From contig JAKALU010000003.1 in assembly GCA_021824065.1 (NCBI GenBank), forward strand, positions 5,553-69,552: a stretch of 64,000 nt of DNA. Reading direction: 5' to 3'. The translations under genes and the position numbers were made by a program. Source of the stretch: Nitrospirota bacterium (lineage in GTDB: Bacteria; Nitrospirota; Thermodesulfovibrionia; Thermodesulfovibrionales; UBA1546). Below are positions 16,494 through 48,901 of the stretch, piece after piece (positions within the stretch are counted from its first letter, which is position 1; each line of letters opens with the position of its first letter). The notes under the pieces were generated by a model. It did not search any database. It saw nothing but the letters and a program-made list of their open reading frames with translations, and had not been told where the DNA came from.

Positions 16494-17874
16494 TCAGTCA
16501 GAAGCCGGAAGCCAGAAGTCAGAAAGAATCCAGAGACTATTTACTATTGACTTTAGACTTTTAACTTTGTTTTTGTTGGCTACTGTCTACTGTCTACTGA
16601 CTACTGATGTTTTTGCCCTTGATGTAAACAAAAAACTACTCAATAACGGACTTATTGTCCTGCATTCAGAAAAACACAACATTCCTATAGTTATGGTTAC
16701 TATGATTGTGAAGGCCAGCCCGCTGGATGAACCAAAGGAGAAAGCAGGGCTTGCAAACCTTGTTGCCGAACTCCTTGACGAAGGGACTAAAAACAGAAAG
16801 TCATCAGAGATAAGCGAGGAGATTGAATTTATTGGCGCCTCACTTGGTGCTTCCGCAGGGGGTGACTACACAACCATAACCCTGTCTGTTCTTAAAAAGG
16901 ATGTAGAAAAAGGTTTTGAACTCTTCTCTGACATAGTTTTAAACCCTGTATTTCCCCAGGAAGAACTGGACAGAAAAAGAGAGCTTATAAAAGGCTCTTT
17001 GAAACAGAGAGAAGAGGAGCCGTCTTTTCTTGCAGACCGTGCATTCAAAAAAGAGATTTTTGGAGAGCACCCTTATGGCAGACAGATAGAGGGGACAACA
17101 GAAACCCTTTCAGTAATAAACAGAGAAGACCTCATAAAATTTCACCAAAAATATTTTATTCCGAATAATGCAATACTCTCGGTTGTCGGAGACCTGACTC
17201 CTGATGAATTGAATTCATTGATTAAAAAATATCTCGGCTCGTGGAAAATTGCTGAAATGCCAGAAAAACAGATAAACCCTATGCCTGAAGAAAAAACAAA
17301 AAAGGTTATAAAAATAGAAAAAGACGTCACACAGGCGAATATAATCATCGGGCACCTCGGCATCAGCAGAGATAACCCGGACTACTACGCTGTTTCTGTT
17401 ATGAACTACATACTCGGAGGCGGGGGTTTTTCATCAAGGCTTATGCAAAGGATAAGGGATGACATGGGTCTTGCATACGATGTGCACAGTTTTTTTGCGC
17501 CGGGCAAAGAAAAAGGCGTATTTCAGGCAGGGGTTCAGACAAAGAATGAATCAGCAAATACAGCTATTACAGAGATAATAAAACAGATAGAAAGGATCAG
17601 AAAAGAGGAGGTATCGGATATAGAACTCGCCGATGCAAAGGCTTATCTCACAGGGAGTTTTCCAAGGAGGCTTGACACTAACAGAAAGATTGCAGACTTT
17701 CTTGCGACCATTGAATTCTATAACCTCGGGCTTGATTATGCAGAAAAATATCCCTCATATATAAATAGCGTGACAAAAGAGGATGTGTTAAGGGTTGCTA
17801 AAAAATACCTCGCCCCTGAAAACTTTGTTCTTGTTGTTGTGGCCAACCAGAAAAAGGCAGAATTGAAATATTAG
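16483..17874 (+). CDS. M16 family peptidase, non-catalytic (no HxxEH) partner subunit
   Basis: 463 aa with M16 fold signatures but no HxxEH motif. Overlaps the upstream gene by 11 nt. The N-terminus is encoded by heptamer arrays. Confidence 0.8.
   Translation: MKSNQSEAGSQKSERIQRLFTIDFRLLTLFLLATVYCLLTTDVFALDVNKKLLNNGLIVLHSEKHNIPIVMVTMIVKASPLDEPKEKAGLANLVAELLDEGTKNRKSSEISEEIEFIGASLGASAGGDYTTITLSVLKKDVEKGFELFSDIVLNPVFPQEELDRKRELIKGSLKQREEEPSFLADRAFKKEIFGEHPYGRQIEGTTETLSVINREDLIKFHQKYFIPNNAILSVVGDLTPDELNSLIKKYLGSWKIAEMPEKQINPMPEEKTKKVIKIEKDVTQANIIIGHLGISRDNPDYYAVSVMNYILGGGGFSSRLMQRIRDDMGLAYDVHSFFAPGKEKGVFQAGVQTKNESANTAITEIIKQIERIRKEEVSDIELADAKAYLTGSFPRRLDTNRKIADFLATIEFYNLGLDYAEKYPSYINSVTKEDVLRVAKKYLAPENFVLVVVANQKKAELKY
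16497..16607. repeat. Two 4x7-nt word arrays: GTCAGAA GCCGGAA GCCAGAA GTCAGAA (16497-16524) and CTACTGT CTACTGT CTACTGA CTACTGA (16580-16607)
   Basis: Read directly from the sequence. Both lie in the first 125 nt of the second M16 ORF. Confidence 0.85.
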
Positions 17875-17928
17875 AATTTTTCTCTCACCGGTGACCATGC
17901 ATCTACAAATTACAGGACTTATTACCTT

Positions 17929-20790: not shown

Positions 20791-20824
20791 AAAATAAAAA
20801 GGCCACGGGGTTTATTCCGTGGCC
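20791..20824 (-). terminator. Rho-independent terminator (minus strand)
   Basis: GGCCACGG-ggtttatt-CCGTGGCC hairpin (20801-20824). On the minus strand it is followed by TTTTTATTTT (20791-20800). Confidence 0.65.
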
Positions 20825-20943
20825 TTTGAAGTTTTTCTATGTTATCCGACTAACAGTTAATAGAATCCCCCTTCAGCCACGGCACCTATATGCCATGGAT
20901 TCCTAAGGACGGCCTTATTAATTGTCATCAGATTGTAAAACAT
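20791..20943 (-). ncRNA. Candidate sRNA of about 150 nt, or a leaderless micro-ORF transcript
   Basis: Bounded by a near-consensus promoter (20950-20978) and the terminator (20791-20824). An internal CCATGGCA/TGCCGTGG stem is nested in GAATCC/GGATTC. No family was recognised. Confidence 0.35.
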
Positions 20944-21133: not shown

Positions 21134-21406
21134 ATGCGATTTGAATGGGACGCGGCCAAAAACAGTGCGAACAGAGTAAAACACGGCATTGATTTTGAAA
21201 CTGCAAAGGGCTTATGGCGTGATGAAAACCGCATTGAAATACAAGCCCCCCATCCTGTGGAAAACAGGCAGATTATTATAGGCAGGATTAAGGAAAAATT
21301 ATGGACAGCAGTATATACGATGCGTGGCAGTAACATCCGTATTATATCTGTAAGACGTTCCAGAAAAAAGGAGGCAGAGTTATATGAAAAAGAAAACGCT
21401 GGCTAA
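21134..21406 (+). CDS. brnT: BrnT family toxin (DUF497)
   Basis: MRFEWDAAKNSANRVKHGIDFETA...IRIISVRRSRKKE is the BrnT signature. Overlaps the downstream antitoxin gene. Confidence 0.85.
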   Translation: MRFEWDAAKNSANRVKHGIDFETAKGLWRDENRIEIQAPHPVENRQIIIGRIKEKLWTAVYTMRGSNIRIISVRRSRKKEAELYEKENAG

Positions 21407-21650
21407 GAGCGCAAAAGAGTTCGACCGCCGTTTTAATGAAGGCGAAGATATCCATGACCTCATAGATATGTCAAAGGCCGTGGTGTTGCATCGCGGCAAG
21501 AAGGTGCGAATTACATTGGATATCTCCGAATCACTGGTCAGGGACATAGACAGCATACGTCAAAAAATAGGCGTAGACAGAGGCGCCTTGATAAAAGTAT
21601 GGCTTCATGAGCGCGTGAAACAGGAGACAGCATCAAACAAGTCAGCATAG
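21384..21650 (+). CDS. brnA: BrnA-type (CopG/RHH-like) antitoxin
   Basis: 88 aa. Overlaps brnT by 23 nt. The C-terminal RITLDISESLVRDID..KIGVDRGALIKVWLHERV is typical of BrnA. Confidence 0.8.
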   Translation: MKKKTLAKSAKEFDRRFNEGEDIHDLIDMSKAVVLHRGKKVRITLDISESLVRDIDSIRQKIGVDRGALIKVWLHERVKQETASNKSA

Positions 21651-22281: not shown

Positions 22282-22354
22282 CCATGTTATAATTCATTCA
22301 GGACTTCTGCATGGACACTATCGAAAAACTTAAAATCCTCTCTGAAGACTCGCG
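22282..22354 (+). repeat. Duplicated copy of the promoter and first 16 codons of the radical SAM gene (orphan copy)
   Basis: CCATGTTATAATTCATTCAGGACTTCTGCATGGACACTATCGAAAAACTTAAAATCCTCTCTGAAGACTCGCGG matches 24058-24129. By eye there are about 5 mismatches plus one 1-nt indel. Confidence 0.8.
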
Positions 22355-22366
22355 GAGAAAGATAGA

Positions 22367-22430
22367 AAGTCAGCAAGCACGAAAGAGCAGAAGTGCAAAA
22401 GTCAAAAGTGCAAAAGAGCGGAAGAGCGGA
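22367..22430. repeat. 8x8-nt word array (AAGTCAGC AAGCACGA AAGAGCAG AAGTGCAA AAGTCAAA AGTGCAAA AGAGCGGA AGAGCGGA)
   Basis: Read directly. Sits upstream of the 22512 gene. Confidence 0.8.
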
Positions 22431-22511
22431 TTCGCAACATATAAAGAACAGTGCTAAGATTATTTTATGTACCTCTGATGTCCGGGCTACACATAAGTAT
22501 CTGGAGAGTTC

Positions 22512-23048
22512 ATGAAGGGATGGAACATCCTTGCAACGGCGCAGCATAGACAGGAACGCTATTTATTCCGCTTCTTGAGTAACCTTGGGGAATTCAGGCA
22601 TTCCGGATATCGGGACGTCATCCTCGGACACGTTGCCGACGTACATGCATTTCTTGATGCACTTGAAGCCATTCGACGGGAAACTCCCGGGAAGCTCCGG
22701 TCACTCGGTCAGATCGTCCCCATAGAGAGGAACTTCCAATTTGAAGTGGCTGATTTCATGGACAAGGCAAAAGAGGCTGTTTCCCCTTTTATCAATCAAT
22801 TGGAGAACACCAGATTTTTTGTCAGAGTTGTGAGAAGGGGGCATAAGGGCGAGATTTCGAGTTTGGAAGCAGAAAAGGAACTCGATGCTTACATCCTAAA
22901 GTCTCTCGAAAGGGACAGAAAGCAGGCAACTGTCAATATCGAGGAGTTTGACAAGATGGTGATTATAGAGACCGTCGAAAATCTCGCGGGGGCCGGCCTC
23001 ATCACAAGGGAAATGAAGGGGAAATACTCCTTTATCAAGATAAAGTAA
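22512..23048 (+). CDS. Hypothetical protein, possibly THUMP-domain-like
   Basis: 178 aa. The pattern N-terminal WNILAT..., then FFVRVVRRGHKG, then MVIIETVENLAGAGLI resembles small THUMP proteins. Called from memory only. Confidence 0.4.
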   Translation: MKGWNILATAQHRQERYLFRFLSNLGEFRHSGYRDVILGHVADVHAFLDALEAIRRETPGKLRSLGQIVPIERNFQFEVADFMDKAKEAVSPFINQLENTRFFVRVVRRGHKGEISSLEAEKELDAYILKSLERDRKQATVNIEEFDKMVIIETVENLAGAGLITREMKGKYSFIKIK

Positions 23049-23094
23049 GTGGAAGCGTCAGAGCATCAAAGGGTCAGAGGGCAAGCGGAGTAGA
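23047..23094. repeat. 6x8-nt word array (AAGTGGAA GCGTCAGA GCATCAAA GGGTCAGA GGGCAAGC GGAGTAGA)
   Basis: Read directly. Starts at the stop codon of the 22512-23048 gene. Confidence 0.75.
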
Positions 23095-23147: not shown

Positions 23148-23843
23148 ATGAATAAGACAGAGCGGTTTGCATTCCTATTAGGTGTAATTGCGCTGTGTGC
23201 AGGGATTGTATCCATCATCCCGCTGCTTGCAGATGCAGGATCTGAGTCAGAGATAATAAAACTGCCTGCGCCCAGATATGATGGTGATACTTCAATCGAA
23301 GAGACCCTGCATAAAAGAAGGTCTATTAGAGATTACAAAGACGAGCCATTAACACTCGCTGAGGTCTCACAGCTTCTCTGGGCTGCACAGGGCATTACAG
23401 ATCCGAGAGGTCTCAGAGCCGCTCCTTCTGCAGGGGCACTATACCCCCTTGAACTTTACGTTGTTGCCGGAAATGTGAATGGCCTCTCAGATGGGATTTA
23501 TAAGTACAGGCCTCACAATCATGACCTGTTGAGGGTTGCAAAGGGCGACAGGAGAATTGAACTATGTGATGCAGCAATCGGCCAGCCCTGCGTCAGAAAT
23601 GCCCCTGTAATTATAGTCTTCTCCGCAGTATATGAAAGGACAACTATGAAATATGGAGGAAGGGGCATAAGGTATGTGCATATGGAAGCCGGTCATGCAG
23701 CCCAGAATATTTATCTCCAGGCAGTCTCTCTAAATCTCGGGGTGGTAGCTATAGGGGCTTTTAATGATAACGCGGTGAAAAGGGTTGTGAAGATGTCAGA
23801 TAAAGAACAGCCGCTCTGCATAATGCCTGCTGGCAGGAGATAG
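23148..23843 (+). CDS. SagB/ThcOx-type nitroreductase-family dehydrogenase with an N-terminal membrane anchor
   Basis: 231 aa. Contains RRSIRDY, LSQLLWAAQG, APSAGALYPLELY and GIYKYRPHNHDL. Confidence 0.8.
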   Translation: MNKTERFAFLLGVIALCAGIVSIIPLLADAGSESEIIKLPAPRYDGDTSIEETLHKRRSIRDYKDEPLTLAEVSQLLWAAQGITDPRGLRAAPSAGALYPLELYVVAGNVNGLSDGIYKYRPHNHDLLRVAKGDRRIELCDAAIGQPCVRNAPVIIVFSAVYERTTMKYGGRGIRYVHMEAGHAAQNIYLQAVSLNLGVVAIGAFNDNAVKRVVKMSDKEQPLCIMPAGRR

Positions 23844-24057
23844 AAACAGGCATCCTTATTTCAGGAGATAGAAACAGGCATCCTTATTTATTGTTCAATA
23901 GTGCATTCCTCAAGAGACTTGTCATATCTTATCATCTCGAATCTCGGCAGAACCCATTGAGGTGACTGTAAGCGAATATCTTGAGCGCATCCGTTCTCAG
24001 CAGGAATGCTGGCGGGCTGAACAAAGAGGCCGAGGACGTCCTATCAAATACCATCAC

Positions 24058-37657: not shown

Positions 37658-38074
37658 ATGGCGACAATACGATTTGGCATATCACTGGAAAACGCACTGC
37701 TTGAGGGGTTTGACAACCTTATCAAGAAAAAGGGCTATTCAAACCGGAGTGAGGCAATACGGGATCTTATCAGGGATAGCCTTGTGATGGAGGAATGGGA
37801 ATTCTCTGCCGCTGAGACTGTGGGGACCATCACAATCGTTTATTCACATGAAACCAGGGAACTGACAGATACGCTTACTGACCTTCAACATCATTATCAT
37901 AGTTCAATAATCTCAGCCATGCATATACACCTTGATGAACATAACTGCCTTGAGGTTATTGTAGTGAAAGGCAAGGCAAAGGATATAAAGGCTATAGCTG
38001 ACAGACTGATCGGCACAAAGGGTGTAAAACACGGGAAGCTCACTGTTACAACAACCGGCAAACGCCTGAAGTAA
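37658..38074 (+). CDS. nikR: Nickel-responsive regulator NikR
   Basis: 138 aa. N-terminal RHH ([16 protein letters not shown]) and C-terminal metal-binding domain (HH..HIHLD..CLEV). Confidence 0.9.
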
Positions 38075-38138
38075 ATTTTTTTGTATTATCAGTAGCACGA
38101 TTCTAAAATTAGTGGCATTACCAGAAAGGAGCAAATAT

Positions 38139-38927
38139 ATGAGATTTAAGGTTCGAAGGTTAAGAATCAAGGTTTTTTTGTTTTTCCTGCTATTCACTGT
38201 TCACTATTCACTTTTCACTGTTTCTTATGCGGCGCACCCGCTTATAACAGATGATACTGGCACACAGGGTAAAGGGAAATTTCAACTTGAATTAAATGGA
38301 GAGTATGGACGAGAAGATGAAGATGGAGTCACAACTAATACCACAGAGGCATCAACAATATTATCTTACGGGGTAATTAACAACGTGGATATCGTATTTG
38401 GTATACCATATCAATATGTAAGGGCAAAAGATTCGGGGGCTGCATTTACAGAGGATGGTGTCTCAGATGCATCGATTGAATTGAAGTGGCGGTTTTATGA
38501 GAGGAAAGGTCTAAGTCTTGCCTTGAAACCCGGTATTACCCTTCCGACAGGAGACGAAGAAAAGGGATTGGGAGCAGGACGTTCAACATATTCCCTGTTT
38601 TTTATTACTACAAAGGAAATCGAGCCGTGGGCATTCCATCTCAATCTCGGCTATATGAGAAATGATAACAAGGCCGATGAAAGAAAAAATCTGTGGCACG
38701 CATCTCTTGCCTCTACGGTTGAAGTTGTAAAAGACCTGGAAGTAGTCGTTAATATCGGAATCGAGAAAGATACGGAAAGGAACAGCAATATTGATCCTGC
38801 CTTTATTCTGGGTGGATTAATTTATTCTGTATCAGAAAATTTTGACATTGACTTTGGCATCAAGCATGAACTAACTAAGCCCGAGACTGACTATTCAGTT
38901 CTTGCGGGAATTACATGGAGGTTTTAA
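38139..38927 (+). CDS. Outer-membrane beta-barrel transporter-like protein (MetA-pathway/phenol-degradation-type family)
   Basis: Start moved to the ATG at 38139, preceded by AAAGGAG. Has a signal peptide, alternating beta-strand pattern and a C-terminal ...GITWRF. Confidence 0.6.
   Translation: MRFKVRRLRIKVFLFFLLFTVHYSLFTVSYAAHPLITDDTGTQGKGKFQLELNGEYGREDEDGVTTNTTEASTILSYGVINNVDIVFGIPYQYVRAKDSGAAFTEDGVSDASIELKWRFYERKGLSLALKPGITLPTGDEEKGLGAGRSTYSLFFITTKEIEPWAFHLNLGYMRNDNKADERKNLWHASLASTVEVVKDLEVVVNIGIEKDTERNSNIDPAFILGGLIYSVSENFDIDFGIKHELTKPETDYSVLAGITWRF
38193..38220. repeat. 4x7-nt word array TTCACTG TTCACTA TTCACTT TTCACTG
   Basis: Read directly. Encodes part of the OMP signal peptide (FTVHYSLFTVS). 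Confidence 0.85.
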
Positions 38928-39599
38928 ATGCACATACCTGACGGATATTTAGGTCCCTATACTTATGGCGGATTATGGGCAGCGATAGTGCCGATATGGA
39001 TTTATGCATCCAGGAAAGTAAAGGAAACATTAAAGGCATCTCAAATTTCGCTCCTTGCATTAAGCGCTGCATTCAGTTTCGTTATTATGATGTTTAATGT
39101 GCCGATACCGGGAGGCACAACAGGACATGCAACCGGCGCAACATTGATTGCGATTTTAATCGGCCCCTGGGCTGCTATAGTTGCTGTATCTATTGCGCTT
39201 ATTATCCAAGCACTTATCTTCGGGGATGGCGGTATAACAGCAATCGGCGCAAATTGTTTTAATATGGGTTTTGCAGAAGTGCTTATTGGTTACAGCATAT
39301 ATAAACTAATTGCAGGAGGATCAGATATAAAATCCATGAGGCGGATAGCAGGAGCAGGTGTAGGAGCGTATATTGGCATCAACTTTGCCGCATTCCTCAC
39401 TGCATTTGAACTCGGCATACAAACTGTTCTCCACGTTGGCACTGATGGAAGGCCGCTCTACAGTCCATTCCCTCTAACGGTTACTATTCCTGCTATAATG
39501 ATTGAACATATAGCGCTGTTCGGGGTTGTGGAAGCAGTAGTTACAGTTCTTGTAATAGGGTATTTGCGTAAATCACATCCTGATTTAATAAGGAGGTAA
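38928..39599 (+). CDS. cbiM: ECF-type Ni/Co transporter substrate-capture component CbiM/NikM
   Basis: The MHIPDGYL N-terminus is diagnostic. 223 aa, multi-TM. The start abuts the OMP stop. Confidence 0.9.
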   Translation: MHIPDGYLGPYTYGGLWAAIVPIWIYASRKVKETLKASQISLLALSAAFSFVIMMFNVPIPGGTTGHATGATLIAILIGPWAAIVAVSIALIIQALIFGDGGITAIGANCFNMGFAEVLIGYSIYKLIAGGSDIKSMRRIAGAGVGAYIGINFAAFLTAFELGIQTVLHVGTDGRPLYSPFPLTVTIPAIMIEHIALFGVVEAVVTVLVIGYLRKSHPDLIRR

Positions 39600-39601
39600 T
39601 T

Positions 39602-39943
39602 GTGAACATTTTAAACTATAAAAAACTCTGGATAGGAATTGGAATATTGATACTTCTTTCCCCGCTCGGCATAATTCTCCCTGAGATATTTAAGTCAGGT
39701 GGAGCATGGGGTGAATGGGGAGTTGATGAGATTGAAAAAATTGCAGGCTACGTCCCTAAGGGGTTAAAAAAATTATCAGAGCTTTGGAGGTCGCCGATTC
39801 CTGATTATTCATTTTCAGGATGGGAAGGATTTTTAAAAAGCTCAATTGCCTACATTATTTCGGGAATTATTGGTGTGGGTCTTGTTGTACTTGTGTCAAT
39901 ACTGATAGGTAGATTTCTTGCGAGGAAAAATGGCAATTCCTGA
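39602..39943 (+). CDS. CbiN/NikN-like small membrane component
   Basis: 113 aa with two TM helices flanking a soluble loop. GTG start after AAGGAGG. Its position between cbiM and cbiQ supports the call. Confidence 0.6.
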   Translation: MNILNYKKLWIGIGILILLSPLGIILPEIFKSGGAWGEWGVDEIEKIAGYVPKGLKKLSELWRSPIPDYSFSGWEGFLKSSIAYIISGIIGVGLVVLVSILIGRFLARKNGNS

Positions 39944-40859
39944 TTGGCTTAAGAGACAGTCGTCAATTGTCAGTCGTCAGTTGTCAGCAAAGAAAACAAA
40001 GGAGAGGTTTCTTGACAAGACGTTGGGGCATATTGTCTCTTTTACTGAAGACACGATGTTCAATGAGGTTACTTCTTCAAAAAATGGTTTTTTACAGGCC
40101 ATTGAACCGAGGCTGAAGGTGTTGACCATCATTTTTTTCATAATTTCATTAAGCCTTCAAAAAAGTTTGTATACTGTATCAGCGTTCTCTCTCATTTCAT
40201 TGGCACTGGCTTTGATATCAAGGATCCCCCTTCACCTTTTTATACAAAGAATTCTGCCTGCTTTTCTAATCACGCTTTTGATTGCAGCCCCTGCCACTTT
40301 GAACTTTATTGTAAAAGGTGAGCCGCTAATAAGGCTTTATACTTTTGAGAATTCATGGAGCATCGGCAGATTAATTATTCCGCAGGAAATCTCTATTACG
40401 AAACAGGGACTGTCAAGTGCAGCGACACTTCTTTTAAGGGTAACAGCGTCTGTCTCTCTGGTTTTTCTGATCACACTGACGACTTCACCGAACAGATTTA
40501 TCAAGGCAATCTCGTCTTTTATGCCTGGTGCATTTAAATCCATAATATCCATGAGCTACAGATACATATTTTTCCTGATAAAGAAGGTTGAGCAGTTTAT
40601 AATGGGCTTTACAGCAAGGAATATATCGTCAATGTCTCGCGGGGTTACAGGCCGCAGGTGGGTTGCATCAAGAATGGGTCTTTTGTTTTCAATCAGCCTT
40701 AAATTGAGCACCGAGCTTGAGCAGGCCATGGAATCCAGAGGATATAAAGAAGAGTTCAGAGTTGAGAGTTCAGAGTTGAGAGTTTCAAGGACTGATATTT
40801 TATGGGTGATCCTTAGCATAATGTTTATGGGGGTAATGCTTTGGAAGTCTTTAACGTAG
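39918..40859 (+). CDS. cbiQ: ECF transporter transmembrane (T) component CbiQ, with an N-terminal extension of about 60 aa
   Basis: 313 aa. AIEPRLKVL.. matches the CbiQ entry motif, and the protein is multi-TM. The start could be the ATG at 39930. Confidence 0.8.
   Translation: MRGKMAIPDWLKRQSSIVSRQLSAKKTKERFLDKTLGHIVSFTEDTMFNEVTSSKNGFLQAIEPRLKVLTIIFFIISLSLQKSLYTVSAFSLISLALALISRIPLHLFIQRILPAFLITLLIAAPATLNFIVKGEPLIRLYTFENSWSIGRLIIPQEISITKQGLSSAATLLLRVTASVSLVFLITLTTSPNRFIKAISSFMPGAFKSIISMSYRYIFFLIKKVEQFIMGFTARNISSMSRGVTGRRWVASRMGLLFSISLKLSTELEQAMESRGYKEEFRVESSELRVSRTDILWVILSIMFMGVMLWKSLT
39957..39991. repeat. 5x7-nt word array CAGTCGT CAATTGT CAGTCGT CAGTTGT CAGCAAA
   Basis: Read directly. 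Lies in the 5' extension of cbiQ. Confidence 0.85.
40752..40786. repeat. 5x7-nt word array GAGTTCA GAGTTGA GAGTTCA GAGTTGA GAGTTTC
   Basis: Read directly. Lies at the 3' end of cbiQ and encodes EFRVESSELRVS. Confidence 0.85.
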
Positions 40860-41923
40860 AAAAAATATCGTATACATATAAAAATGGCAAGACGGCTGTT
40901 GATGGGGTCTCATTCAGTGTTGCTAACGGCGAAAGCCTGACAATAATAGGCACTAACGGCTCTGGTAAATCAACGCTCCTTTATCTCCTTGATGGTCTTC
41001 TGATCCCGGAGTCTGGAAGCATGAGAATATTCGGTAAAGATGCAAGTAATGGATTTCTATCCGATTTCAGGCAGAGGATATCGCTCCTGTTCCAGAACCC
41101 GCATGCCCAGCTTTTTTTATTGAGTGTCTGGGATGAATTATGCTTCGGGCCGTCACAGCTTGAACTTGATAAAGCTGAAATACAGAAAAGAGCAGAGGAT
41201 ATACTTGGATTGTTCGGCATAGAACATCTGAGGGACAGGGGGCCATGGGATTTGAGTGGAGGAGAAATGAAGAAGGTTGCTCTTGGAACATGCCTCAGCA
41301 TCAACCCTGATGTACTTTTGCTTGATGAACCAACAACCGGACTTGACCCGAGAAGTCAGGTCGAAATTGTAGATTTAATAAATGAACTCAGGAAAGCAGG
41401 CAAGACGATAATTACTGCAACCCACGATCTTGGTATAATTGAAGATATCTCTGACAGGACAATTGTTCTTGGTGAAGACCACAGGATTTTGCTTCAAGGT
41501 AAGCCGTGGGTTGTAATGGCCGATACAGAAACTCTTCTTCAAGCCAATCTTATTCACAGGCATGTGCACAGGCACTGCTGGTATGTTCATGAGCACAGCC
41601 ATTCTGGAAGACATGAACATGAGCATATGGTTTTACATGATGTATTAACAAGTCCCCCCTCACCACCATCTACTGAAGGGAGGCATGGGGGGGTTAATGA
41701 GGAGGGTGTTTTAAAGATGACAGATTTAGAAAAACTCAAAAAGCTGCTGGAGCACTGGGCAGAGCATAATGAAGAGCATGTGAGCACATATCTTGAATGG
41801 GCAGAAAAGGCAGATGCATCAGGAGAAAAAGAATTGTATAAAATACTAAGAGAAATAGCTGAAAATACAAAGAAGATGGATGGGTTGTTTGAAAAGGCAA
41901 AGAAGATAATTGAAAGTAAATAA
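40841..41923 (+). CDS. cbiO: ECF transporter ATPase CbiO/NikO with a His-rich tail and a fused helical module of about 69 aa
   Basis: Walker A GTNGSGKST, signature LSGGEMKK, Walker B LLLDEP. Followed by HRHVHRHCWYVHEHSHSGRHEHEH, a C/G hairpin element, and MTDLEKLKKLLEHWAEHNEEH... Confidence 0.85.
   Translation: MEVFNVEKISYTYKNGKTAVDGVSFSVANGESLTIIGTNGSGKSTLLYLLDGLLIPESGSMRIFGKDASNGFLSDFRQRISLLFQNPHAQLFLLSVWDELCFGPSQLELDKAEIQKRAEDILGLFGIEHLRDRGPWDLSGGEMKKVALGTCLSINPDVLLLDEPTTGLDPRSQVEIVDLINELRKAGKTIITATHDLGIIEDISDRTIVLGEDHRILLQGKPWVVMADTETLLQANLIHRHVHRHCWYVHEHSHSGRHEHEHMVLHDVLTSPPSPPSTEGRHGGVNEEGVLKMTDLEKLKKLLEHWAEHNEEHVSTYLEWAEKADASGEKELYKILREIAENTKKMDGLFEKAKKIIESK
41654..41693. repeat. Nested C-run/G-run element inside the cbiO tail, translated as SPPSPPSTEGRHGG
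   Basis: The sequence is CCCCCCTCACCACCATCTACTGAAGGGAGGCATGGGGGGG. Confidence 0.65.
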
Positions 41924-41924
41924 G

Positions 41925-41983
41925 TGTCAGAGGGTCAAAGTGTCAAAGTCTCTGATACTCTGACGCTCTGATACTTTGATACT
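41925..41983. repeat. Inverted pair of 8-nt word arrays (TGTCAGAG GGTCAAAG TGTCAAAG | TCTCTGAT ACTCTGAC GCTCTGAT ACTTTGAT)
   Basis: Read directly. Starts 2 nt after the cbiO stop. The arms are imperfect reverse complements. Confidence 0.8.
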
Positions 41984-42551
41984 TGGGAGATTAATGGAAT
42001 ATAAACTGCCAGAGGGATTTGATAACAGGGAAGAGGCAATCGAATCAATCATAAAGAAAGAGATTGAGGCAGGCGAGTCTGAACTTGAAATCATCAAAAA
42101 GGGGATTGCGGAATTCCTTCTCAATAATAAAGGATATTCTAAAGAAGAGATTGAGAGAGATGTTGAATTTGATGTTGTTGTGGGGAACGAGAGAGCTAAA
42201 TCAAGGGCTGATTTTATCGTAAGAATCAGCGGTAAAAGGTTAATGATTGTGAAATGCTCTGTTGGCGCTCTTGTTTCAAGGGAAAGGCAGGCAATAGCAT
42301 GCGCGCGTGTAATGGATTCTTATCAGATTCCCTTTGCCATTGTGACAGACGGCAATCACGCAACAGTGCTCAACACGCTTACAGGTGAGGTAATTAGCGA
42401 GGGGCTTGAAAAGATTCCTTCAAAGGATGAGCTTAAGAAGATGATGGAGCAGATTGAATTCAAGGAGCTTCCTTCAAACAGGGCAGAAAAGGAAAAGCGA
42501 ATCCTCCTCGCATTTGATGCGATAAAGTGCTCGATAAATTATGGAGAGTGA
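41976..42551 (+). CDS. Type I restriction enzyme HsdR N-terminal-domain-like (PD-(D/E)xK-type) protein
   Basis: 191 aa. RADFIVRISGKRLMIVKC...PFAIVTDGNHATVLN resembles the HSDR_N_2 family. The likely start is the ATG at 41994. Confidence 0.6.
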   Translation: MILGRLMEYKLPEGFDNREEAIESIIKKEIEAGESELEIIKKGIAEFLLNNKGYSKEEIERDVEFDVVVGNERAKSRADFIVRISGKRLMIVKCSVGALVSRERQAIACARVMDSYQIPFAIVTDGNHATVLNTLTGEVISEGLEKIPSKDELKKMMEQIEFKELPSNRAEKEKRILLAFDAIKCSINYGE

Positions 42552-42558
42552 TTTGTTT

Positions 42559-42580
42559 ATATCCGAACAAGTTCGGATAT
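42559..42580. terminator. Perfect 10-bp inverted repeat ATATCCGAAC-aa-GTTCGGATAT between convergent genes
   Basis: Read directly. There is no clear T-run on either side, so terminator function is uncertain. Confidence 0.35.
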
Positions 42581-42600
42581 GCTCTCGGGATGAGATGTAA

Positions 42601-42966
42601 TCAGTTATGAGAATGTGTTTTGCGCAACTTGTTCCCGCAATTGAAACAGAAGTTCCCTCTTAGCCTGTGGATATTAGAAGTCTTGGGGTCAAAAATCTCT
42701 ATGAATTCTATCAACGATGTAAACTTGCAGCAGCAATCTTTATAATTGATTTGAGACTCGGAATCATGCTCCAGAGGCTTTCCACAATGCATGCAGAAAT
42801 TAACCTTCAGGGGCATCAAACCTGAACCAAATAATTCATACAGTTTGTTTTGTGCTTCTTCTTCGAAAGTTCCTCTTTTTATGACCTTACAACACCATGA
42901 ATCAGCGAACCCTTCAAGGTTTTCTAATTCATACCATAAAGCCCAGCTTTCTTTGTCTAACAACAT
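42601..42966 (-). CDS. Hypothetical protein with two CxxCG zinc-ribbon knuckles
   Basis: 121 aa containing CMHCGKPL and CFNCGNKL. A TTGACA-N17-TAATTA promoter-like sequence lies just upstream. Confidence 0.45.
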   Translation of the reverse strand: MLLDKESWALWYELENLEGFADSWCCKVIKRGTFEEEAQNKLYELFGSGLMPLKVNFCMHCGKPLEHDSESQINYKDCCCKFTSLIEFIEIFDPKTSNIHRLRGNFCFNCGNKLRKTHSHN

Positions 42967-43179
42967 ATGCTTTTTCTTTTATAATTACAGGAAATCATTT
43001 TGCTTGTCAATTATGTAACTATAAATAGCAAATAACCTAATCTTACTTTTATTAAACTTAGATTGACAAAAAGGATAGCTTAAAAGCATACAAGAAGCCT
43101 TTTTTTGCATCTTGACAGTGATTATATGATAATACTTCGTTCTTAGATTAGAAGAAGAGAAATTGATACATTGAAATTT

Positions 43180-44088
43180 TTACGGTGTTTCTGAGGCGAA
43201 AAGCCCTGTGCTCAGGTAGCGTTCTCCCCTGTCAGGTAAAATAACGACAACCTTCTTCCCTCTGCCGAGTTTTTTAGCGACTCTTAATGCTGCCCACATT
43301 GCTGCACCTGAGGATATGCCGCACAGAAGCCCTTCTTTCAAGGACAATTGTCTTGCTGTCTCTCCCGCATCAGAATCAGTAACCTGAGTTACTTCGTTGT
43401 AGATTTTTGTGTTCAAAACACCTGGATAAAAACCTGCTCCAATTCCTGCAATCTTATGAGGTCCTGGATTCCCGCCTGAAAGCACCGGGGATGCTGCCGG
43501 CTCTACTGCAACTATCCATACACCAGGGTTTTTACTCTTTAAAACCTCGCCAACGCCTGTTATTGTCCCTCCTGTCCCGACACCTGCTACAAAACCATCA
43601 GGAACAGAGCCGAGGTCTTCTATAACTTCTACTGCTGTTGTCTTTCTGTGTACCTCAGGGTTTGCTGGGTTTTCAAACTGTTGAGGCATGAAGTAATCAG
43701 GGTTCATCTTATATATCTCTTCTGCCTTTTCAACAGCTCCCATCATGCCTTTTTTGCCTTCTGTCAAAACAAGTTCCGCTCCATAGGCCTGAAGGAGTTG
43801 TCTCCTTTCCATTGACATGGTCTCTGACATGGTAAGAATCAATCTATACCCTTTTACCGCTGCGACCAGTGCAAGCCCTATCCCGGTATTCCCGCTTGTG
43901 GGCTCTATTATTATTCCGCCAGGCTTCAGCCTCCCGTCTTTCTCTGCTGTCTCTATCATCGAAAGGGCAATCCTGTCTTTTACAGAGCCTCCTATGTTAT
44001 AGCCCTCGAGTTTTGCCCAGACCTCTGCATCATTTATTGAGCAGAGACGATTGATCTTTACTAAAGGTGTGTTGCCAATCAGTGTCAA
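43180..44088 (-). CDS. cysK: Cysteine synthase A (O-acetylserine sulfhydrylase)
   Basis: 302 aa. Contains IGNTPLV, the PLP lysine region GGSVKDR, and [10 protein letters not shown]. Confidence 0.9.
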
Positions 44089-44095
44089 TATGTTT

Positions 44096-44995
44096 TTATT
44101 CAGTTTCAGGTTTGCCTCCCTTTATTATCAAATCAAAAAGGGTGTCTGCCATTTTAGTATTCATATCTTTTAATATCATGTATTCTTTTGTTGCAAGCTT
44201 TATTTCTCCAATATTTACATATGACGTCCCAATGCCGTAATGGGCATCTGCATGTTTAGGGTTTATTCGAATAGCCTCCTTAAATGAAATGATTGCTTCA
44301 TCAAAGCTGCCTGTTGCAAGCATAGCATATCCGAGACCATTATGGAAATCTGCACTGTCAGGCTCTATAGCTATTGCCTTCTTGAATTCTATAGCAGCCT
44401 CACGGGCATTGCCCATCTCCATCATTGCAATCCCCATCCACCCATGAAGTTCGGCATTGCCCATATCTTTTTTAAGGGCATCCCGGAGGATTTCTACAGC
44501 CTTATCATAATCGTGAGCCTTAATATACCCTCTCACCGTAGAAATTTTATCTTCAAAAAATTTTACCTGACTATCACCTTTTGGTGACTTTACATCAAGG
44601 GCAGGCAGATTAAGATTCTTCATAAAATCGAGTATCACCTTAACAGGCATTGCCTCAAACAAATCTCCTGCTGTTGATTGCCTGTAAACCATTCCAACAA
44701 CTTTGTTGTCAAAAAATACCGGGGTGCCTGGTAGGGGTTTCTCTTCAAACTCGACAAGCATATATACCGTATTATCACGGTTTTTTTTAATGCCGCTGAC
44801 TACACCCTGTATCTTTTTGATCGTCGTGCCTTCTGTTTTGAGTGTATAGATCTTATCGGCGATTGATGCTACATAGTCAGTGTTAAATTCAGGCGATTTT
44901 GTGTTTATGACATCCTGCGGGTAAGAATCCTTAAACCATGCCACCTGGGACAGAAAGAACATAAAGCAGATAATCGCAAACTTTCCGGTCTTCAT
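44096..44995 (-). CDS. Secreted TPR-repeat protein
   Basis: 299 aa with a signal peptide. The C-terminal half carries about four TPR units ([20 protein letters not shown]...). Confidence 0.65.
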
Positions 44996-45011
44996 AGCCG
45001 TCCTGCCGACT

Positions 45012-46868
45012 TCAGTCCGTAACCTCTAAAAGCTCTCTGCCTTCCCTTATCTGTTCGAAGGTAGTAATATCAATGCCTTTATCTTCGAAATATTCTTTTT
45101 CTACGATCTCGATGTAAAACCTATCAAGTCCGCTATTCTTAAGAAAGTCCTCTCTTAAATTTATATCTTTTTTCTCTACGATTATCGGCAGAAGATGATT
45201 GAGATAGAACGATTCTTTCCTGAGGTCTAAGAGCGCCTTCTCAAATAGCTTTTGAGGCACTTTCCTCGCAAAGCCCTCTTCAGCAAGTTCTCTCCCTATG
45301 TCCTCTCTTATCTCATCCCTCCCCTCTTTAGTATTAAGCCGGGGATAGAAACTGCGCATCCTTTCCTTGAGCGCACCATGCACATGATGATAGAGCCTTT
45401 CTTCATCTCTGATCATTTTCAGTTCAGCAACCACATCCCTCAGGGATGCATCTCCTGCAGAGACTTTTGTAATCCCTTTTGATATAGTATTAATCTTTTT
45501 CCTGCCATAGGCTGTTATATATTTGTTGCGAAGGAGCTCTTTTACAGCTATCTCATCAAAAAGTCCTCTGTCGAGTTTATCAAACTCCTTTTTATTGCCT
45601 ATAAGGCTCCTGAGAGAATCCTCTGTGAAATCCACATTCTCCATAAAAGCTATCTGACTCAGTAATGCCTGGACGTTATCGTACCTGTCAAAGTATGTGA
45701 CTATAGAGCTGAACTCTTCAAAGATACTGAAATCATTTGTTTCACGTGCAATCTCATCACATGCCTTGCCTGTATCGAGGAGTACCTGTTCAAAGCCCAT
45801 ATCACTATGAGAATGTGCCCTGTGTTTTGCCTTTACCAGCCTCACTATATCTTCATTTATTATGTGTTTCTTCAGAGACGGGTCTTTAAAAAAGAGGTTT
45901 TCGAGTATTGATCTGGCCTCCTTGAGATATTCAGGCTCTTTTATCTCCTGTAACTTTTTGCCTCTGAGCAGAAGTTCATCAAGCGTATCGAAAAGGACAA
46001 TCGGGATATTGTTCCTGATGCTCAGGGTTCTCAATCTCCTCAATCTCGCAACCTCTGAAAGTTCGAGGCTGTCTTTAGAGATACTGTTGAGAAGGATATC
46101 CCTGTATTCATCAACCACACGCCTGTTCTCAGGGTGTTTGTACATTATGTCAATCTTCATCCTCTCCTGCTGATAGTTGTCTATTTTATATCTTGCCACT
46201 ATGTCTTCAAGATAAAGTTCTTCCTGCGGTGTCAGCGCCCTTTCATTAGAATAAAATTTTTCAAATGCTCTGTAGAATTCTCCATTTTCCTTGTGGATTA
46301 TCTCAAATATGAATACCGTTGATTTTTGCTCATTCAATTCGCTTATAAAATCGTTCATCAGTTCTGTATCTTTACCTTCCCCAATAAATTCTGTCCTTTT
46401 CAGAAACTTCCCAACAGACCTTAATATCTGTTTCTGCCGTTTTTTGTATTCGCCCCTGAAATCTGAGGACACAAAGAAATAATAGTTCTTTACTGCATTG
46501 CCCTGGAGGAAAAGCCTGTAGAATAATTCGCTGCCTTCGGTATCGTTTGTAAATACAATACTCTCCTCCTCGTCGAGAAACGCACCAAACATGATCAGCC
46601 TGTTGGAAACCTCTCCTTTTATCATGTCCTTCAGCGGTTTTTCTACACCAAACATATATTCGCAGAAACTTCCGCCTGTGCCTTTATAATGGATGCCCTC
46701 TTTAGAGATGGTGAATTCATTCCCCTTTGAGAAAAATCTTATATGGAAAGCTGTTTCTTCATAGAAATATGTACTCTCAACACTGGCTCCACCTACAAGT
46801 GCAAAGAACTCAACTGGTCCGAGATTCCCATGAAGCCTGAGGTCCTTAATCATATAAAAATATAACAC
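45012..46868 (-). CDS. Large conserved hypothetical cytoplasmic protein
   Basis: 618-aa uninterrupted ORF with no motif I can name. The likely start is MIKDLRL at 46853. Confidence 0.55.
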   Translation of the reverse strand: MLYFYMIKDLRLHGNLGPVEFFALVGGASVESTYFYEETAFHIRFFSKGNEFTISKEGIHYKGTGGSFCEYMFGVEKPLKDMIKGEVSNRLIMFGAFLDEEESIVFTNDTEGSELFYRLFLQGNAVKNYYFFVSSDFRGEYKKRQKQILRSVGKFLKRTEFIGEGKDTELMNDFISELNEQKSTVFIFEIIHKENGEFYRAFEKFYSNERALTPQEELYLEDIVARYKIDNYQQERMKIDIMYKHPENRRVVDEYRDILLNSISKDSLELSEVARLRRLRTLSIRNNIPIVLFDTLDELLLRGKKLQEIKEPEYLKEARSILENLFFKDPSLKKHIINEDIVRLVKAKHRAHSHSDMGFEQVLLDTGKACDEIARETNDFSIFEEFSSIVTYFDRYDNVQALLSQIAFMENVDFTEDSLRSLIGNKKEFDKLDRGLFDEIAVKELLRNKYITAYGRKKINTISKGITKVSAGDASLRDVVAELKMIRDEERLYHHVHGALKERMRSFYPRLNTKEGRDEIREDIGRELAEEGFARKVPQKLFEKALLDLRKESFYLNHLLPIIVEKKDINLREDFLKNSGLDRFYIEIVEKEYFEDKGIDITTFEQIREGRELLEVTD

Positions 46869-46933
46869 ATGCCCGTTAAAATATTCTATTGCCCTTTATT
46901 GCCGAAAAGGGCCGTATTTGGTTATCATATCTT

Positions 46934-48901
46934 ATGAAGAAGAAATTTTTGCCCTCTCCCCTCGAAGGGGAGGGATGGGTGGGAGGGGCTATTTCCTGTG
47001 TTCTGCTTATAGCAGTGTCTTTTACCTTTTTAAGCATTGCAGCAGCACAGGGGACAGATGGGAAAGCCCTTCTTATTAAGGGTAAAAATGAGATGGATGA
47101 CGGCAGATATGCCGAGGCAATTGAGAGCCTCTCTGCAGCGTATGAGAAACTGCCGGTTATCAGAGATTATATACTTTTCTGGCTATCAAAGGCCTATCAA
47201 GAGTCGGGCAATATCACTGAATCAAATTCCAAGATAAAAGAACTGCTCAAAGGCTATCCTGACTCGCCCTTAAGGAAAAAGGCACGGGCAATGGAGATTA
47301 AAAACATTGTTGCCTCAAAGGACATGCCGCATGATTTAAAGACCTTTGAATCTTATATCAAAGACTATCCGGAAGACTACGAAATAAAGTTTTTATTTGC
47401 ACAGCTCCTCAAAAAGAAAGGAGAGGCAGAAAAGGCAAAAACAATATTTAAGGACATATACGTCAACAGCGCAGGGACACTTTCAAAAATAGCATATAAT
47501 GAATTGACACCCTCTGATATCGCCCTGCACGACCTTATTGAAAAGGCATCAAATCTCATAAATGTTATGGAATTTACAATGTCTGAATCTATACTCAGAG
47601 AGGCCCTGCTGAGAGATGACGGACAGCGCAAACTTGAGATTCTTAAGAAATTAGGGCATTCAATCTTCAAACAAAAAAGATATAAGGAATCAGCAGAGAC
47701 ATATGAAAAGGCGGGTGATTATTATTCGAGGGCAAAGGCACTTTATATGGCAGGAGAAAAGACTGCGTTTGGCACCGCCTTAAAAAAACTGGCTTTGATG
47801 GGAGACAGGAGGACAGGCTCGCTTTTGATTCTGGCTGCATCTGCCAAGCGGAGGAATGGCGAGATTGATGAGGCACTGAGTATTTATAGAAATATAAAGG
47901 CAAATTATCCCGCAGAGGCGGAGAATTCTTTATGGGGCATTGGCTGGACTTATTATCGCAGCGGTGACTATCAGAAAGCCCTTGACGTCTTTACAGACCT
48001 TTGCAGTGTTTACAACAGCTCAAAATATCTCTACTGGAAGGCGCAGTCATTGGAAGCGTTGGGCAAAGACTCAGACCATATTTACAGACAGCTTGCAGAG
48101 AGAGAGCAGGATTTTTACAGTGTACTTGCACAGATAAGAAAGGGGTCAAGGGGTCAAGGGGTCAAGAGTTCGGGGGTTGGGTTCTCAATTAATTCAGACT
48201 CAAAACTCAAGCCCTTTCAGTCCGAGAGAATTGACATCCTGATGGAACTCGGCATGAAAAAAGAGGCAGTTACAGAACTATCTGCCGTGGCCAGAAAGGC
48301 AACCAGCCCTGATGAGCTTGCTTCTGTTTCTCTGAAACTGCAGGAGGCCGGGGGATATACATTGGCAATAGCCCTATCATCAAAGCTGCCTTATAGAGAT
48401 GTGACGCACAGCATTTTATATCCGCTTGCCCATTGGCCCGTTGTCAAGGAAGTATCTGCCAGATATGAAGTTGACCCTTTTGTTGTTCTTTCTGTCATGA
48501 GAGAGGAAAGCCGCTTCGATCCCGGGGCTCGCTCCCATGCAGGGGCACTTGGGCTTATGCAGCTAATGCCACAGACAGCCTATTTAATAAACAGAAAGAT
48601 TAATCTGAATATAACTTCTCGGGAACAGATTCATGATATAAAGATAAATATAACCCTCGGCTCATATTACATAAACTCGCTGATAAAAGAGTTCGGCTCA
48701 TTACCAGCAGCAGTAGCAGCTTATAATGCAGGAGAAGACATTGTAAGGAAATGGCAGAAGGCAGGTAATTATAAGTCATTGGATGAATTCGTTGAGGATA
48801 TCCCTTATGACGAAACAAGAAATTTTGCCAAGCGTGTTATCACTACTTACTTTGAGTATCTCAAGTCTGCGGGTGGAAAAGAGATACCGCAAATCTTATA
48901 A
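46934..48901 (+). CDS. slt: Soluble lytic murein transglycosylase (Slt70-like)
   Basis: Start moved to the ATG at 46934 (MKKKF...). Superhelical TPR-like N-domain. C-terminal SLT catalytic motif ESRFDP...GLMQLMP...AYNAG. Confidence 0.85.
   Translation: MKKKFLPSPLEGEGWVGGAISCVLLIAVSFTFLSIAAAQGTDGKALLIKGKNEMDDGRYAEAIESLSAAYEKLPVIRDYILFWLSKAYQESGNITESNSKIKELLKGYPDSPLRKKARAMEIKNIVASKDMPHDLKTFESYIKDYPEDYEIKFLFAQLLKKKGEAEKAKTIFKDIYVNSAGTLSKIAYNELTPSDIALHDLIEKASNLINVMEFTMSESILREALLRDDGQRKLEILKKLGHSIFKQKRYKESAETYEKAGDYYSRAKALYMAGEKTAFGTALKKLALMGDRRTGSLLILAASAKRRNGEIDEALSIYRNIKANYPAEAENSLWGIGWTYYRSGDYQKALDVFTDLCSVYNSSKYLYWKAQSLEALGKDSDHIYRQLAEREQDFYSVLAQIRKGSRGQGVKSSGVGFSINSDSKLKPFQSERIDILMELGMKKEAVTELSAVARKATSPDELASVSLKLQEAGGYTLAIALSSKLPYRDVTHSILYPLAHWPVVKEVSARYEVDPFVVLSVMREESRFDPGARSHAGALGLMQLMPQTAYLINRKINLNITSREQIHDIKINITLGSYYINSLIKEFGSLPAAVAAYNAGEDIVRKWQKAGNYKSLDEFVEDIPYDETRNFAKRVITTYFEYLKSAGGKEIPQIL
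46952..46988. repeat. Nested C-run/G-run element in the slt 5' end, translated as PSPLEGEGWVGG
   Basis: The sequence is CCCTCTCCCCTCGAAGGGGAGGGATGGGTGGGAGGGG, with inner stem CTCCCCT-cga-AGGGGAG. Confidence 0.7.
48142..48181. repeat. 8-nt word array GGGGTCAA x3, then GAGTTCGG GGGTTGGG, inside slt
   Basis: Read directly. Translated as GSRGQGVKSSGVG. Confidence 0.85.

Follow-up and report, generated by a model that had tools for sequence, protein, structure and literature searches.

What writes short arrays of 7- or 8-nt units into a bacterial chromosome, and are they of use to the host? The question is raised by a 64,000-nt stretch of DNA from a Nitrospirota bacterium of the Thermodesulfovibrionia (GenBank contig JAKALU010000003.1, positions 5,553 to 69,552), which was analysed at its full length and is hereafter called the window. 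An initial annotation, made from the letters alone, had described tandem arrays there with units around the word (G/T)TCA(G/A)A(G/A), and had proposed for them a role as periodic binding sites, transcript-boundary structures or slippage-prone contingency sequences. On sequence comparison, the arrays belong to an STRR-like class of repeats that has already been described in other bacteria. The reading favoured here, to which we give an even chance, is that the arrays are self-propagating or repair-generated DNA, which would be written by a putative sequence-specific process and filtered by selection, rather than host regulators.

Periodicity, core and polarity of the arrays

Arrays were called with a periodicity detector of our own, with Tandem Repeats Finder as a second method and 40 dinucleotide-preserving shuffles as the null. 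The window was found to hold 10 period-7 and 4 period-8 arrays, as compared with about 0.25 for each period in the shuffles, in agreement with the strict period and degenerate units first described. No array was detected in the window at periods 4-6 or 10-13, so the signal is specific to 7 and 8 nt. All arrays of the initial annotation were recovered at their coordinates on reading the sequence, and Tandem Repeats Finder assigned them a period of 7 or 8; four more were found at 16536-16568, 28256-28290 and, doubtfully, 27871-27890 and 35467-35506. The array loci number 11 and are confined to 32 kb. They had been said not to be CRISPRs, and they consist in fact of contiguous 7-8 nt units, not of 23-50 nt repeats with unique spacers. 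Five independent assemblies (three from Logan, two from ENA) match the window at 34892-47898 together with the arrays, four being 100% identical and one showing a single-base difference in 2694; the other contigs with the window's cbiM were identical or one base different. The arrays in these assemblies are therefore neither an assembly artefact, a possibility that had been raised at the outset, nor visibly hypervariable.

The lineage was sampled through the 80 best relatives of the window's MetG, one locus per genome (about 20 kb each, 1.31 Mb in total, labelled L0xx), with genes taken from crude longest-open-reading-frame maps, so that coding and intergenic fractions are approximate. Nearly all are labelled as metagenome-assembled genomes (MAGs) of Nitrospirota or Thermodesulfovibrionia; the top MetG identity is 81%, and the nearest CbiQ relative is 71% identical. 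At periods 4, 5, 6, 7, 8, 9, 10, 11 and 12 these loci gave 5, 4, 15, 226, 37, 24, 7, 7 and 18 arrays, by which the proposal of a genome-wide element class was borne out and extended to the whole lineage. Distribution is patchy, with no arrays in 27 of the 80 loci and 17 in 12 kb of L048. The locus from CP070788.1 is among those without period-7 or period-8 arrays and that from CP070632.1 has few, L028 and L023 being array-rich like L048. The period-7 arrays of the relatives comprise 115 distinct canonical units, and units are alike at 6 or more of 7 positions in 16.6% of within-genome pairs as compared with 6.1% of pairs between genomes.

A common core was obtained by aligning 234 heptamer consensus units in all rotations and on both strands, with random heptamers treated alike as the control. 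The G-poor strand reads N-T(0.86)-N-A(0.82)-C(0.83)-T(0.65)-N, so that its complement, the C-poor strand, has A-G-T-N-A. The core holds 4.76 bits of information as compared with 3.52 for the random heptamers. Octamer units also mostly begin with AGT. On this alignment, the GTCARAR word of the initial annotation is this genome's favourite form of an AGT-N-A core that is more degenerate across the lineage. Array length among the relatives has its maximum at 30-33 nt, and in-register runs of the GT core numbered 82 of four, 89 of five, 9 of six, none of seven and one of eight, whereas shuffled sequence gave 47 runs of four and none longer. The five-core mode was seen in paired and unpaired arrays alike and, in small numbers, in strictly intergenic ones too. 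The typical arm is (AGT-N4)x4-AGT, with five cores in about 31-35 nt at a spacing of 7 or, less often, 8 nt.

Arms of opposite type within 80 nt of each other were found in a fixed order among the relatives: the C-poor arm stands first in 58 pairs and the reverse order occurs in 2. Most arms come in such convergent pairs, in which a short A-rich spacer separates the 5' C-poor arm from the 3' G-poor arm, whichever strand is read. Neighbouring pairs match the reverse complement of the partner at 5 or more of 7 positions in 48 of 70 cases, as compared with 12% of random array pairs; the non-complementary ones often lie in open reading frames (ORFs), where the complement of TCA is the stop TGA. 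Pairs can fold as long imperfect hairpins with about one mismatch per unit, and the inverted pairs noticed at first proved real on folding, with -33.8 kcal/mol and z = -7.0 for 41915-41995, z = -6.0 for L048 10730-10815, and z = -4.4 for 28675-28765, the last on the minus strand only.

The flanks are less uniform. On the 5' side of C-poor arms in the relatives, TAAAG and AAGAC show an enrichment of about 4-fold, yet they were rejected as a universal flank motif because they occur at only about 12% of arrays, which makes them the mark of a subfamily; CCCCC is 9-fold enriched beside heptad arrays. In the window, a motif (A/T)TAAAG(A/G) or ATAAGAAAG often adjoins the arrays (28290-28301, 40745-40751, 23040-23046 and 48133-48140).

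The same polarity was observed in viral contigs. Pattern scans of IMG/VR for (AGTNANN)4AGT returned at least 120 stretches and those for a GAT-core control at least 119, totals that are not comparable with each other, and polarity was read from the matches listed. Among these, neighbouring AGT-core runs were convergent in 39 cases and divergent in 0, as compared with 3 and 2 for the GAT-core control. In contigs such as L130, L143, L134 and L120, an A-rich spacer (AAAGGCAAAA or TAAGAGA...TCTTTAA) stands between five AGT cores and five ACT cores. One of them, L143 (IMGVR_UViG_3300044824_000335), is a genuine phage contig by Pfam with a head-tail connector gene; at 675-2804 it has eight AGT-core heptad arms, arranged as convergent pairs between structural genes with the spacer AAAGGCAAAA. 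AAAGGC recurs in the spacers of viral-contig elements. A homolog search for the host of L143 with its 365-aa ORF gave no match at E <= 1e-20.

Turnover and the sites where arrays persist

In comparisons among relatives, turnover of the arrays was shown to be fast and concerted, the arrays changing much faster than the genes around them. At the holB-PSP1 junction, many genomes are without an insert (L025 reads ...GAGAAGGGTAATGGAGGTATAGATG), other genomes have pairs with quite different units, one of them with octamers, and L012, L013, L022 and L027 have an insert related to that of the window, with a unit number in L012 that differs from the window's. In L047, the C-poor arm at this junction starts with the host's own GGTAATG. 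About 12 array sites were compared between L023 and L025, which are 92% identical over 18.6 kb: shared sites were found with unlike units, such as AGTCAAG vs AGTCAGC or a 7-mer pair facing an 8-mer pair, together with three presence/absence differences and indels of 18 and 21 nt, while two arrays were kept unchanged or nearly so. Homogenised change was observed in cbiQ. Relative to the window, every unit of the C-terminal array of L314 carries the same G-to-T change, giving AGATTT(C/G), and the N-terminal array is conserved in L313 with an identical change in both 14-nt copies; L314 has a different array at the N-terminal position, and the G-poor arm (41950-41984) of the octamer pair past cbiO is absent from both. 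Copies also recur at unlinked places: a 44-nt left half AAAGGCG(GTAATGG GTTATGG ...)GTTAAAGGA is nearly identical and in the same frame in three L048 genes including metG, and AGCAGTC arrays occur at at least four loci of L025. Such near-identical dispersed copies were seen in L048 and L025, and in the window each array has its own unit.

The arrays of the window are listed below, with R for C-poor and Y for G-poor arms.

16475-16524, plus strand: R arm of seven heptads, GTGAGAA ... GCCAGAA GTCAGAA, which crosses the stop of the first M16 peptidase gene (16491-16493) into the first codons of the second, read as VKSNQSEAGSQKSE
16536-16568, minus strand: Y arm of five ACT cores 7 nt apart, ACTATTT ACTATTG ACTTTAG ACTTTTA ACTTT, which pairs with 16475-16524 over the spacer AGAATCCAGAG
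16577-16607, minus strand: second Y arm, CTACTGT x4, coding for the hydrophobic core LLATVYCLLTT of the M16 signal peptide
22356-22430, plus strand: octamer array of about nine NNNNRAAG-type units, e.g. AAAGTGCA, 82 nt 5' of the 22512 gene and within a 48-aa K/R/S-rich ORF (22311-22457)
23047-23094, plus strand: octamer array GTCAGAGC ATCAAAGG GTCAGAGG ..., which begins at the stop codon of gene 22512-23048
28256-28290, plus strand: heptad array with a 14-nt super-unit, CAGCCAT TAGTCAG CAGCCAG TAGTTAG CAGCCAG, in the inter-domain linker of holB, coding for AISQQPVVSSQ
28684-28711, plus strand: A-rich arm, TCAAAAT x4, in the final holB codons, finishing 2 nt before the end of the stop codon
28734-28755, minus strand: T-rich partner arm, TTTGCAC TTTGCAT TTTGAAT, finishing directly before the GGAGG ribosome-binding site of the PSP1 gene
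38190-38222, minus strand: Y array CTATTCA CTGTTCA ... with four ACT cores, in the hydrophobic core of the signal peptide of an outer-membrane protein gene (38139-38927)
39957-39987, plus strand: heptad array CAGTCGT CAATTGT CAGTCGT CAGTTGT CAG, cbiQ codons 10-19 (QSSIVSRQLS), 14 nt past the stop of the upstream gene
40751-40784, plus strand: heptad array AGAGTTC/AGAGTTG x5 with five GT cores, near the cbiQ C-terminus (EFRVESSELRVS)
41923-41949, plus strand: R arm of an octamer pair, GTGTCAGA GGGTCAAA GTGTCAAA, which begins at the cbiO stop codon
41950-41984, minus strand: Y arm of the octamer pair, CTCTGATA CTCTGACG CTCTGATA CTTTGATA, forming a hairpin with 41923-41949 with one mismatch per unit, about 3 nt short of a GGGAG that stands before the next gene
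48140-48181, plus strand: octamer array, AAGGGGTC x3 and degenerate units, in the TPR-SLT linker of the lytic transglycosylase, aa 418-431 KGSRGQGVKSSG

The two doubtful additions lack an AGT core and were left out of the family. One, at 35467-35506, is a weak period-7 signal; the other, a telomere-like CCCTAAC x3 run at 27871-27890 (CCCCAACCCCTAACCCCTAA), lies in the conserved N-terminal domain of holB, where comparison with homologs shows no inserted segment, and its likeness is probably fortuitous. The arrays all lie between 16.4 and 48.2 kb. In the flanks, 1-16400 and 48200-64000 or about half of the window, no arrays were found at a relaxed threshold except for one weak signal at 56097; these flanks carry cytochrome, NrfD-type and regulator genes, many of them on the minus strand. 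By Pfam, the window encodes two M16 peptidases, holB, PSP1, metG, mutS2, recR, nikR, cbiMNQO, a lytic transglycosylase, multihaem cytochromes and two-component regulators, and on this gene content it is an ordinary chromosomal region. In L313 (JACQXE010000062.1), cbiM is directly preceded by a DDE transposase fragment at 227-622, a place that is taken in the window by nikR and the outer-membrane protein gene. The 48-aa ORF 22311-22457 (MDTIEKLKILSEDSRRKIESQQARKSRSAKVKSAKERKSGFATYKEQC) is mostly coded by the octamer array; it could encode a small basic protein or be spurious, owing its length to a repeat without stops. At 23834-23889, 28 nt are perfectly duplicated in tandem (CAGGAGATAGAAACAGGCATCCTTATTT x2) across the stop of a nitroreductase gene (23148-23843), with a period unrelated to the heptad family. 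An 88-aa ORF (21384-21650) without a Pfam match comes after, and overlaps, a gene for a BrnT-family ribonuclease toxin (21134-21406); 21134-21650 is plausibly a BrnT/BrnA toxin-antitoxin pair.

The clustering of arrays at gene borders, which the initial annotation had stressed, holds in the window, where a gene boundary is found no more than 100 nt from 8 of the 11 loci, as compared with 3.8 expected (P about 0.011). Across the lineage, most arrays (about 60%) sit inside ORFs. Intergenic arrays nevertheless number 75 as compared with 31 expected, and the 59 convergent pairs divide into 36 in ORFs, 19 between co-directional genes and 2 between convergent genes. The border pattern in the window is better explained by a tolerance filter, which keeps arrays at permissive spots.

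Arrays within ORFs appear simply to be read through and translated. That they are often translated had been noticed from the beginning, and the peptides SQSEAGSQKSE and GSRGQGVKSSG proved correct by in-frame reading, while EFRVESSELRVS appears in the CbiQ alignment. Of 141 arrays situated well within long ORFs, 32 have a stop triplet in their consensus unit in the sense direction and 86 in the antisense direction; among intergenic arrays the proportion is 40-62%. Where stop-bearing units do occur in ORFs, the in-frame copy is individually mutated. In a 1493-aa ORF of L048, the alternation of GTAATG and GTTATG eliminates the in-frame TAA. No stop interrupts this ORF (L048 1688-6169) across its roughly eight in-frame heptad arrays or pairs; it is the densest case observed, with orthologous sites filled in L069, L028, L023 and L025, and its product may be a BadF/BcrA-type activase-like ATPase.

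The sites taken up in proteins are permissive. In MetG, a loop before the conserved WW is replaced by array-coded peptide in some 35 genomes, with inserts in frame. The segment of the holB linker at 28256-28290 is missing from more distant relatives, and L006 and L009 have other array-coded peptides there. Both CbiQ ends carry array-coded inserts across the family, signal-peptide cores are coded by G-poor arms that yield L/F/T/V-rich peptide, and the TPR-SLT linker of the transglycosylase is also occupied. To judge from these positions, arrays persist only at unconstrained sites, namely intergenic gaps, gene ends, signal peptides, linkers and surface loops. The window's metG holds another in-frame palindrome at 30612-30657, CCACCCTCCCATCCCCCCCTTAGTAAGGGGGGGCAAGGGGGGGG (PPSHPPLSKGGQGGG), with C-runs before G-runs and thus a polarity opposite to that of the heptad pairs; similar C7...G7 palindromes occur in the metG loop of at least 10 relatives, including L008, L010, L014, L016, L024, L026, L038, L047 and L071.

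Candidate explanations of the arrays

In the model favoured here, a lineage-encoded, sequence-specific process would make or maintain five-unit arms in a fixed orientation, the candidates being a nickase- or transposase-like activity or an end-extending repair activity. Arrays would arise, be copied between loci, homogenised and replaced, and selection would leave those at permissive sites; whatever they do to neighbouring genes, by way of intercistronic hairpins or added low-complexity peptide for example, would be incidental. Several observations weigh against this model. No transposase, reverse transcriptase or HUH enzyme was found by Pfam among the window genes. Sites filled in one genome and empty in another (the holB-PSP1 junction; L023 vs L025) have no clear target-site duplication, and some inserts replace host sequence. 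The diversity of units within one genome fits a single mobile master copy poorly. Some arrays are kept over long evolutionary distances: L313, at 65% protein identity, still has the cbiQ N-terminal array, and the C-terminal heptad pattern recurs across the family. Finally, a fixed five-unit length and a conserved core would be equally expected of a functional binding site. PolX, RuvC, MutS2 and RecR were considered as array machinery and rejected as ordinary repair genes.

The main rival is a binding-site model, live though rather unlikely, in which an oligomer would occupy five AGT cores and a double oligomer the convergent arms, for nucleoid organisation or gene regulation. The putative binders would be a ribbon-helix-helix protein of the omega, MetJ or ParG type or a ring-shaped RNA binder like HutP or TRAP. 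Ribbon-helix-helix proteins such as omega, MetJ and ParG bind contiguous 7- or 8-bp repeats, and the array geometry, direct as well as inverted, matches such operators. Many units in relatives read CATCACN, which resembles the omega-protein heptad WATCACW. NikR, with a palindromic operator of its own, is the sole ribbon-helix-helix protein of the window. A binder would account for the conserved core, the strict spacing of 7 or 8 nt, the five-unit mode and the fixed orientation, and for the conservation of some arrays at 65% protein identity; furthermore, arms need not be complementary, so that arrangement outweighs base pairing. A like architecture was read by the Geobacter metallireducens authors as global-regulator sites (PMC2700814). 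Binding sites are less easily reconciled with the location of about 60% of arrays and 36 of the 59 pairs in coding sequence, essential housekeeping genes included (on the crude map), with a near-complete turnover of sites between genomes 92% identical, and with orthologous junctions that are empty in many relatives. Genes beside arrays share no functional theme.

Plain slippage is less likely still. Here the arrays would be ordinary long simple-sequence repeats that need no machinery of their own, with 7-nt units intrinsically favoured and harmful arrays removed by selection. Whole-unit indels of 18 and 21 nt between relatives, the differing unit number of orthologous arrays in the window and L012, and the L047 array that starts from the host's GGTAATG are all in its favour, as are the heptameric excess in many bacteria and the polymerase-slippage idea put forward for it (PMC4679880, PMC4692102). 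Slippage predicts a monotonic tail of copy number, whereas the mode is at five with almost nothing above. Nor does it predict the shared AGT core, the 58:2 and 39:0 polarity or the near-identical copies at unlinked loci, and 27 of the 80 related loci are free of arrays.

RNA structural elements, that is, intercistronic hairpins for transcript stability, translational coupling or termination, are improbable. Such a role was proposed for STRRs (PMC2670836), and the pairs do fold far better than shuffles, 19 of them stand between co-directional genes, and several finish right before a ribosome-binding site (holB-PSP1; downstream of cbiO). The sense strand is, however, not the better folder, being so in 14 pairs as compared with 22 for the antisense strand in ORFs and in 11 as compared with 8 between genes, so that RNA-level selection was rejected for want of a bias in hairpin stability; 28675-28765 is poor on the sense strand (z = -1.3). 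Many arms are single, coding pairs are often non-complementary, and hairpin folding alone would not yield strict polarity. Intrinsic terminators were rejected, since no U-tract follows the arrays, a terminator pattern scan of the window gave no match at arrays and normal terminators elsewhere (e.g. 20798-20827), and only 2 of the 59 convergent pairs lie between convergent genes; the transcript-boundary role first suggested loses its ground with these results. In Rfam, the window and five array-rich loci matched only tRNAs and no array. No positive evidence for a regulatory or RNA-structural role was obtained.

Contingency loci, in which gain or loss of units would switch genes by phase variation, were suggested by tandem repeats near start codons and in ORFs with a unit length that is not a multiple of three, and are very improbable, since the arrays are identical in five assemblies from different samples (at assembly level), almost none exceeds five units, the hosts go beyond surface, restriction-modification or other switchable genes and include essential metG and holB, where a one-unit change would shift the frame, besides cbiQ and the M16 peptidase genes, and the differences between relatives preserve the reading frame.

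Kinship with described heptamer repeats

The initial annotation knew of no description of such arrays, but earlier ones exist (PMC2670836, PMC2700814, PMC4679880, PMC4692102), and it is for Thermodesulfovibrio and Nitrospirota that a literature search found none. In filamentous cyanobacteria, 7-bp units repeated in tandem and known as STRRs (short tandemly repeated repetitive sequences) form hairpins in intergenic positions, for example between hupS and hupL, with function unexplained (PMC2670836). They share with the present arrays tandem 7-bp units, several unit families per genome, a location between co-transcribed genes and the capacity for hairpins (PMC2670836, PMC4692102). In the lineage, head-to-tail 7-nt units without spacers occur beyond chance, at many loci and in several unit families. 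STRR units reported by Mazel et al. in 1990 are said to include STRR3, CAACAGT, and STRR2, TTGGTCA, which contain AGTCA and the GTCA core. The hosts differ, STRRs in the strict sense being those of filamentous heterocystous cyanobacteria and the closest loci here being all from Nitrospirota or Thermodesulfovibrionia MAGs; the predominantly non-coding location described for STRRs is not seen here, as the majority of arrays lie in ORFs and are translated. A five-core mode and strict convergent polarity were not found in the STRR literature examined.

In Geobacter metallireducens, GTTGCTYN octamers in fours were described as making up the sites of 24 pairs and MTYCTGA heptamers in fives those of eight pairs, besides 49 GGACCGG x4 elements within and between genes (Aklujkar et al. 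2009, PMC2700814), and the sites were interpreted as binding sites of global regulators of the IHF/HU type, with no test made (PMC2700814). The likeness extends to four or five tandem units of 7-8 nt, opposite-strand pairs at variable distance, inter- and intragenic positions and dozens of copies. The complement of the TCAGRAK word in the window is MTYCTGA, the unit of class 3, and L078 has a GGACCGG-like array at 8-nt spacing. The Geobacter classes have each a fixed consensus found by BLAST, whereas units here vary by locus. Direct repeats of TAACTGA occur in Beggiatoaceae, some Cyanobacteria and Bacteroidetes in 2-6 copies near start codons (MacGregor 2015, PMC4679880). They are likewise heptameric, near start codons, patchy in phylogeny and unexplained, and the complement cAGTTAt fits AGT-N-A; in contrast to the present arrays, they have one fixed stop-bearing unit, nearly always run direct and upstream of genes (a single set among 170 is inverted), and are rarely in ORFs. 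In many bacteria, heptamers lead all long simple repeats in over-representation, for which polymerase slippage was proposed by Mrazek and co-workers (PMC4679880, PMC4692102). The Xanthomonas GGGAATC and Nostoc GGGGAYT repeats (Rehm et al. 2015, PMC4692102) are heptameric, intergenic and in convergent opposite-strand pairs, with much length and sequence variation among close relatives at conserved positions; they differ by G-quadruplex-forming G-runs, the lack of an AGT core and an essentially non-coding location.

Two palindromic families are also comparable. With their in-frame, translated palindromic insertions (the L048 1493-aa ORF, the metG inserts and the avoidance of stops), the present arrays behave like Rickettsia palindromic elements (RPEs), small palindromes inserted in frame at permissive coding sites and translated. 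REP/BIME elements form inverted pairs in intergenic gaps, and REPs, imperfect palindromes of about 35 nt with a GTAG tetranucleotide, depend on the RAYT (Y1) transposase. A single conserved consensus of 35-150 nt, with no 7-nt period inside it, is typical of RPE and REP; the arms here are heptad arrays of 31-35 nt with variable units and not a single consensus of about 100-150 nt. No conserved palindrome was found among the varying units and no Y1 transposase among the window genes, in keeping with a separate type from REP/BIME-RAYT.

A wider proposal, to which we give little credence, joins STRRs, TAACTGA repeats, the Geobacter paired sites and the phage-contig arrays with the present ones in one cross-phylum class, written by a dedicated, horizontally spreading machine. 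Its rules would be AGT cores every 7-8 nt, a five-unit ruler and an obligatory convergent polarity, and the writer could be a core-recognising nickase or transposase, or an end-healing polymerase that would act on both sides of a break and repeat the terminal heptamer of a 3' end some four times. If true, such a machine would answer what makes bacterial heptamer repeats, a question open since 1990.

For 35 years, heptamer tandem repeats have turned up in scattered bacterial phyla, and no account of their origin or function has gained acceptance; the lineage provides an unusually clean data set, with hundreds of arrays and many orthologous sites filled or empty by genome. The core, the five-unit set point and the polarity (58:2, and 39:0 in viral contigs) must be explained by any mechanism, and free slippage does not predict them. 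For the organisms themselves, the arrays add low-complexity peptide to CbiQ and to essential proteins such as MetG and HolB, and they inflate or shift predicted gene starts. In conclusion, these arrays can be a source of error when signal peptides, small ORFs and "intergenic hairpins" are annotated in Nitrospirota MAGs.

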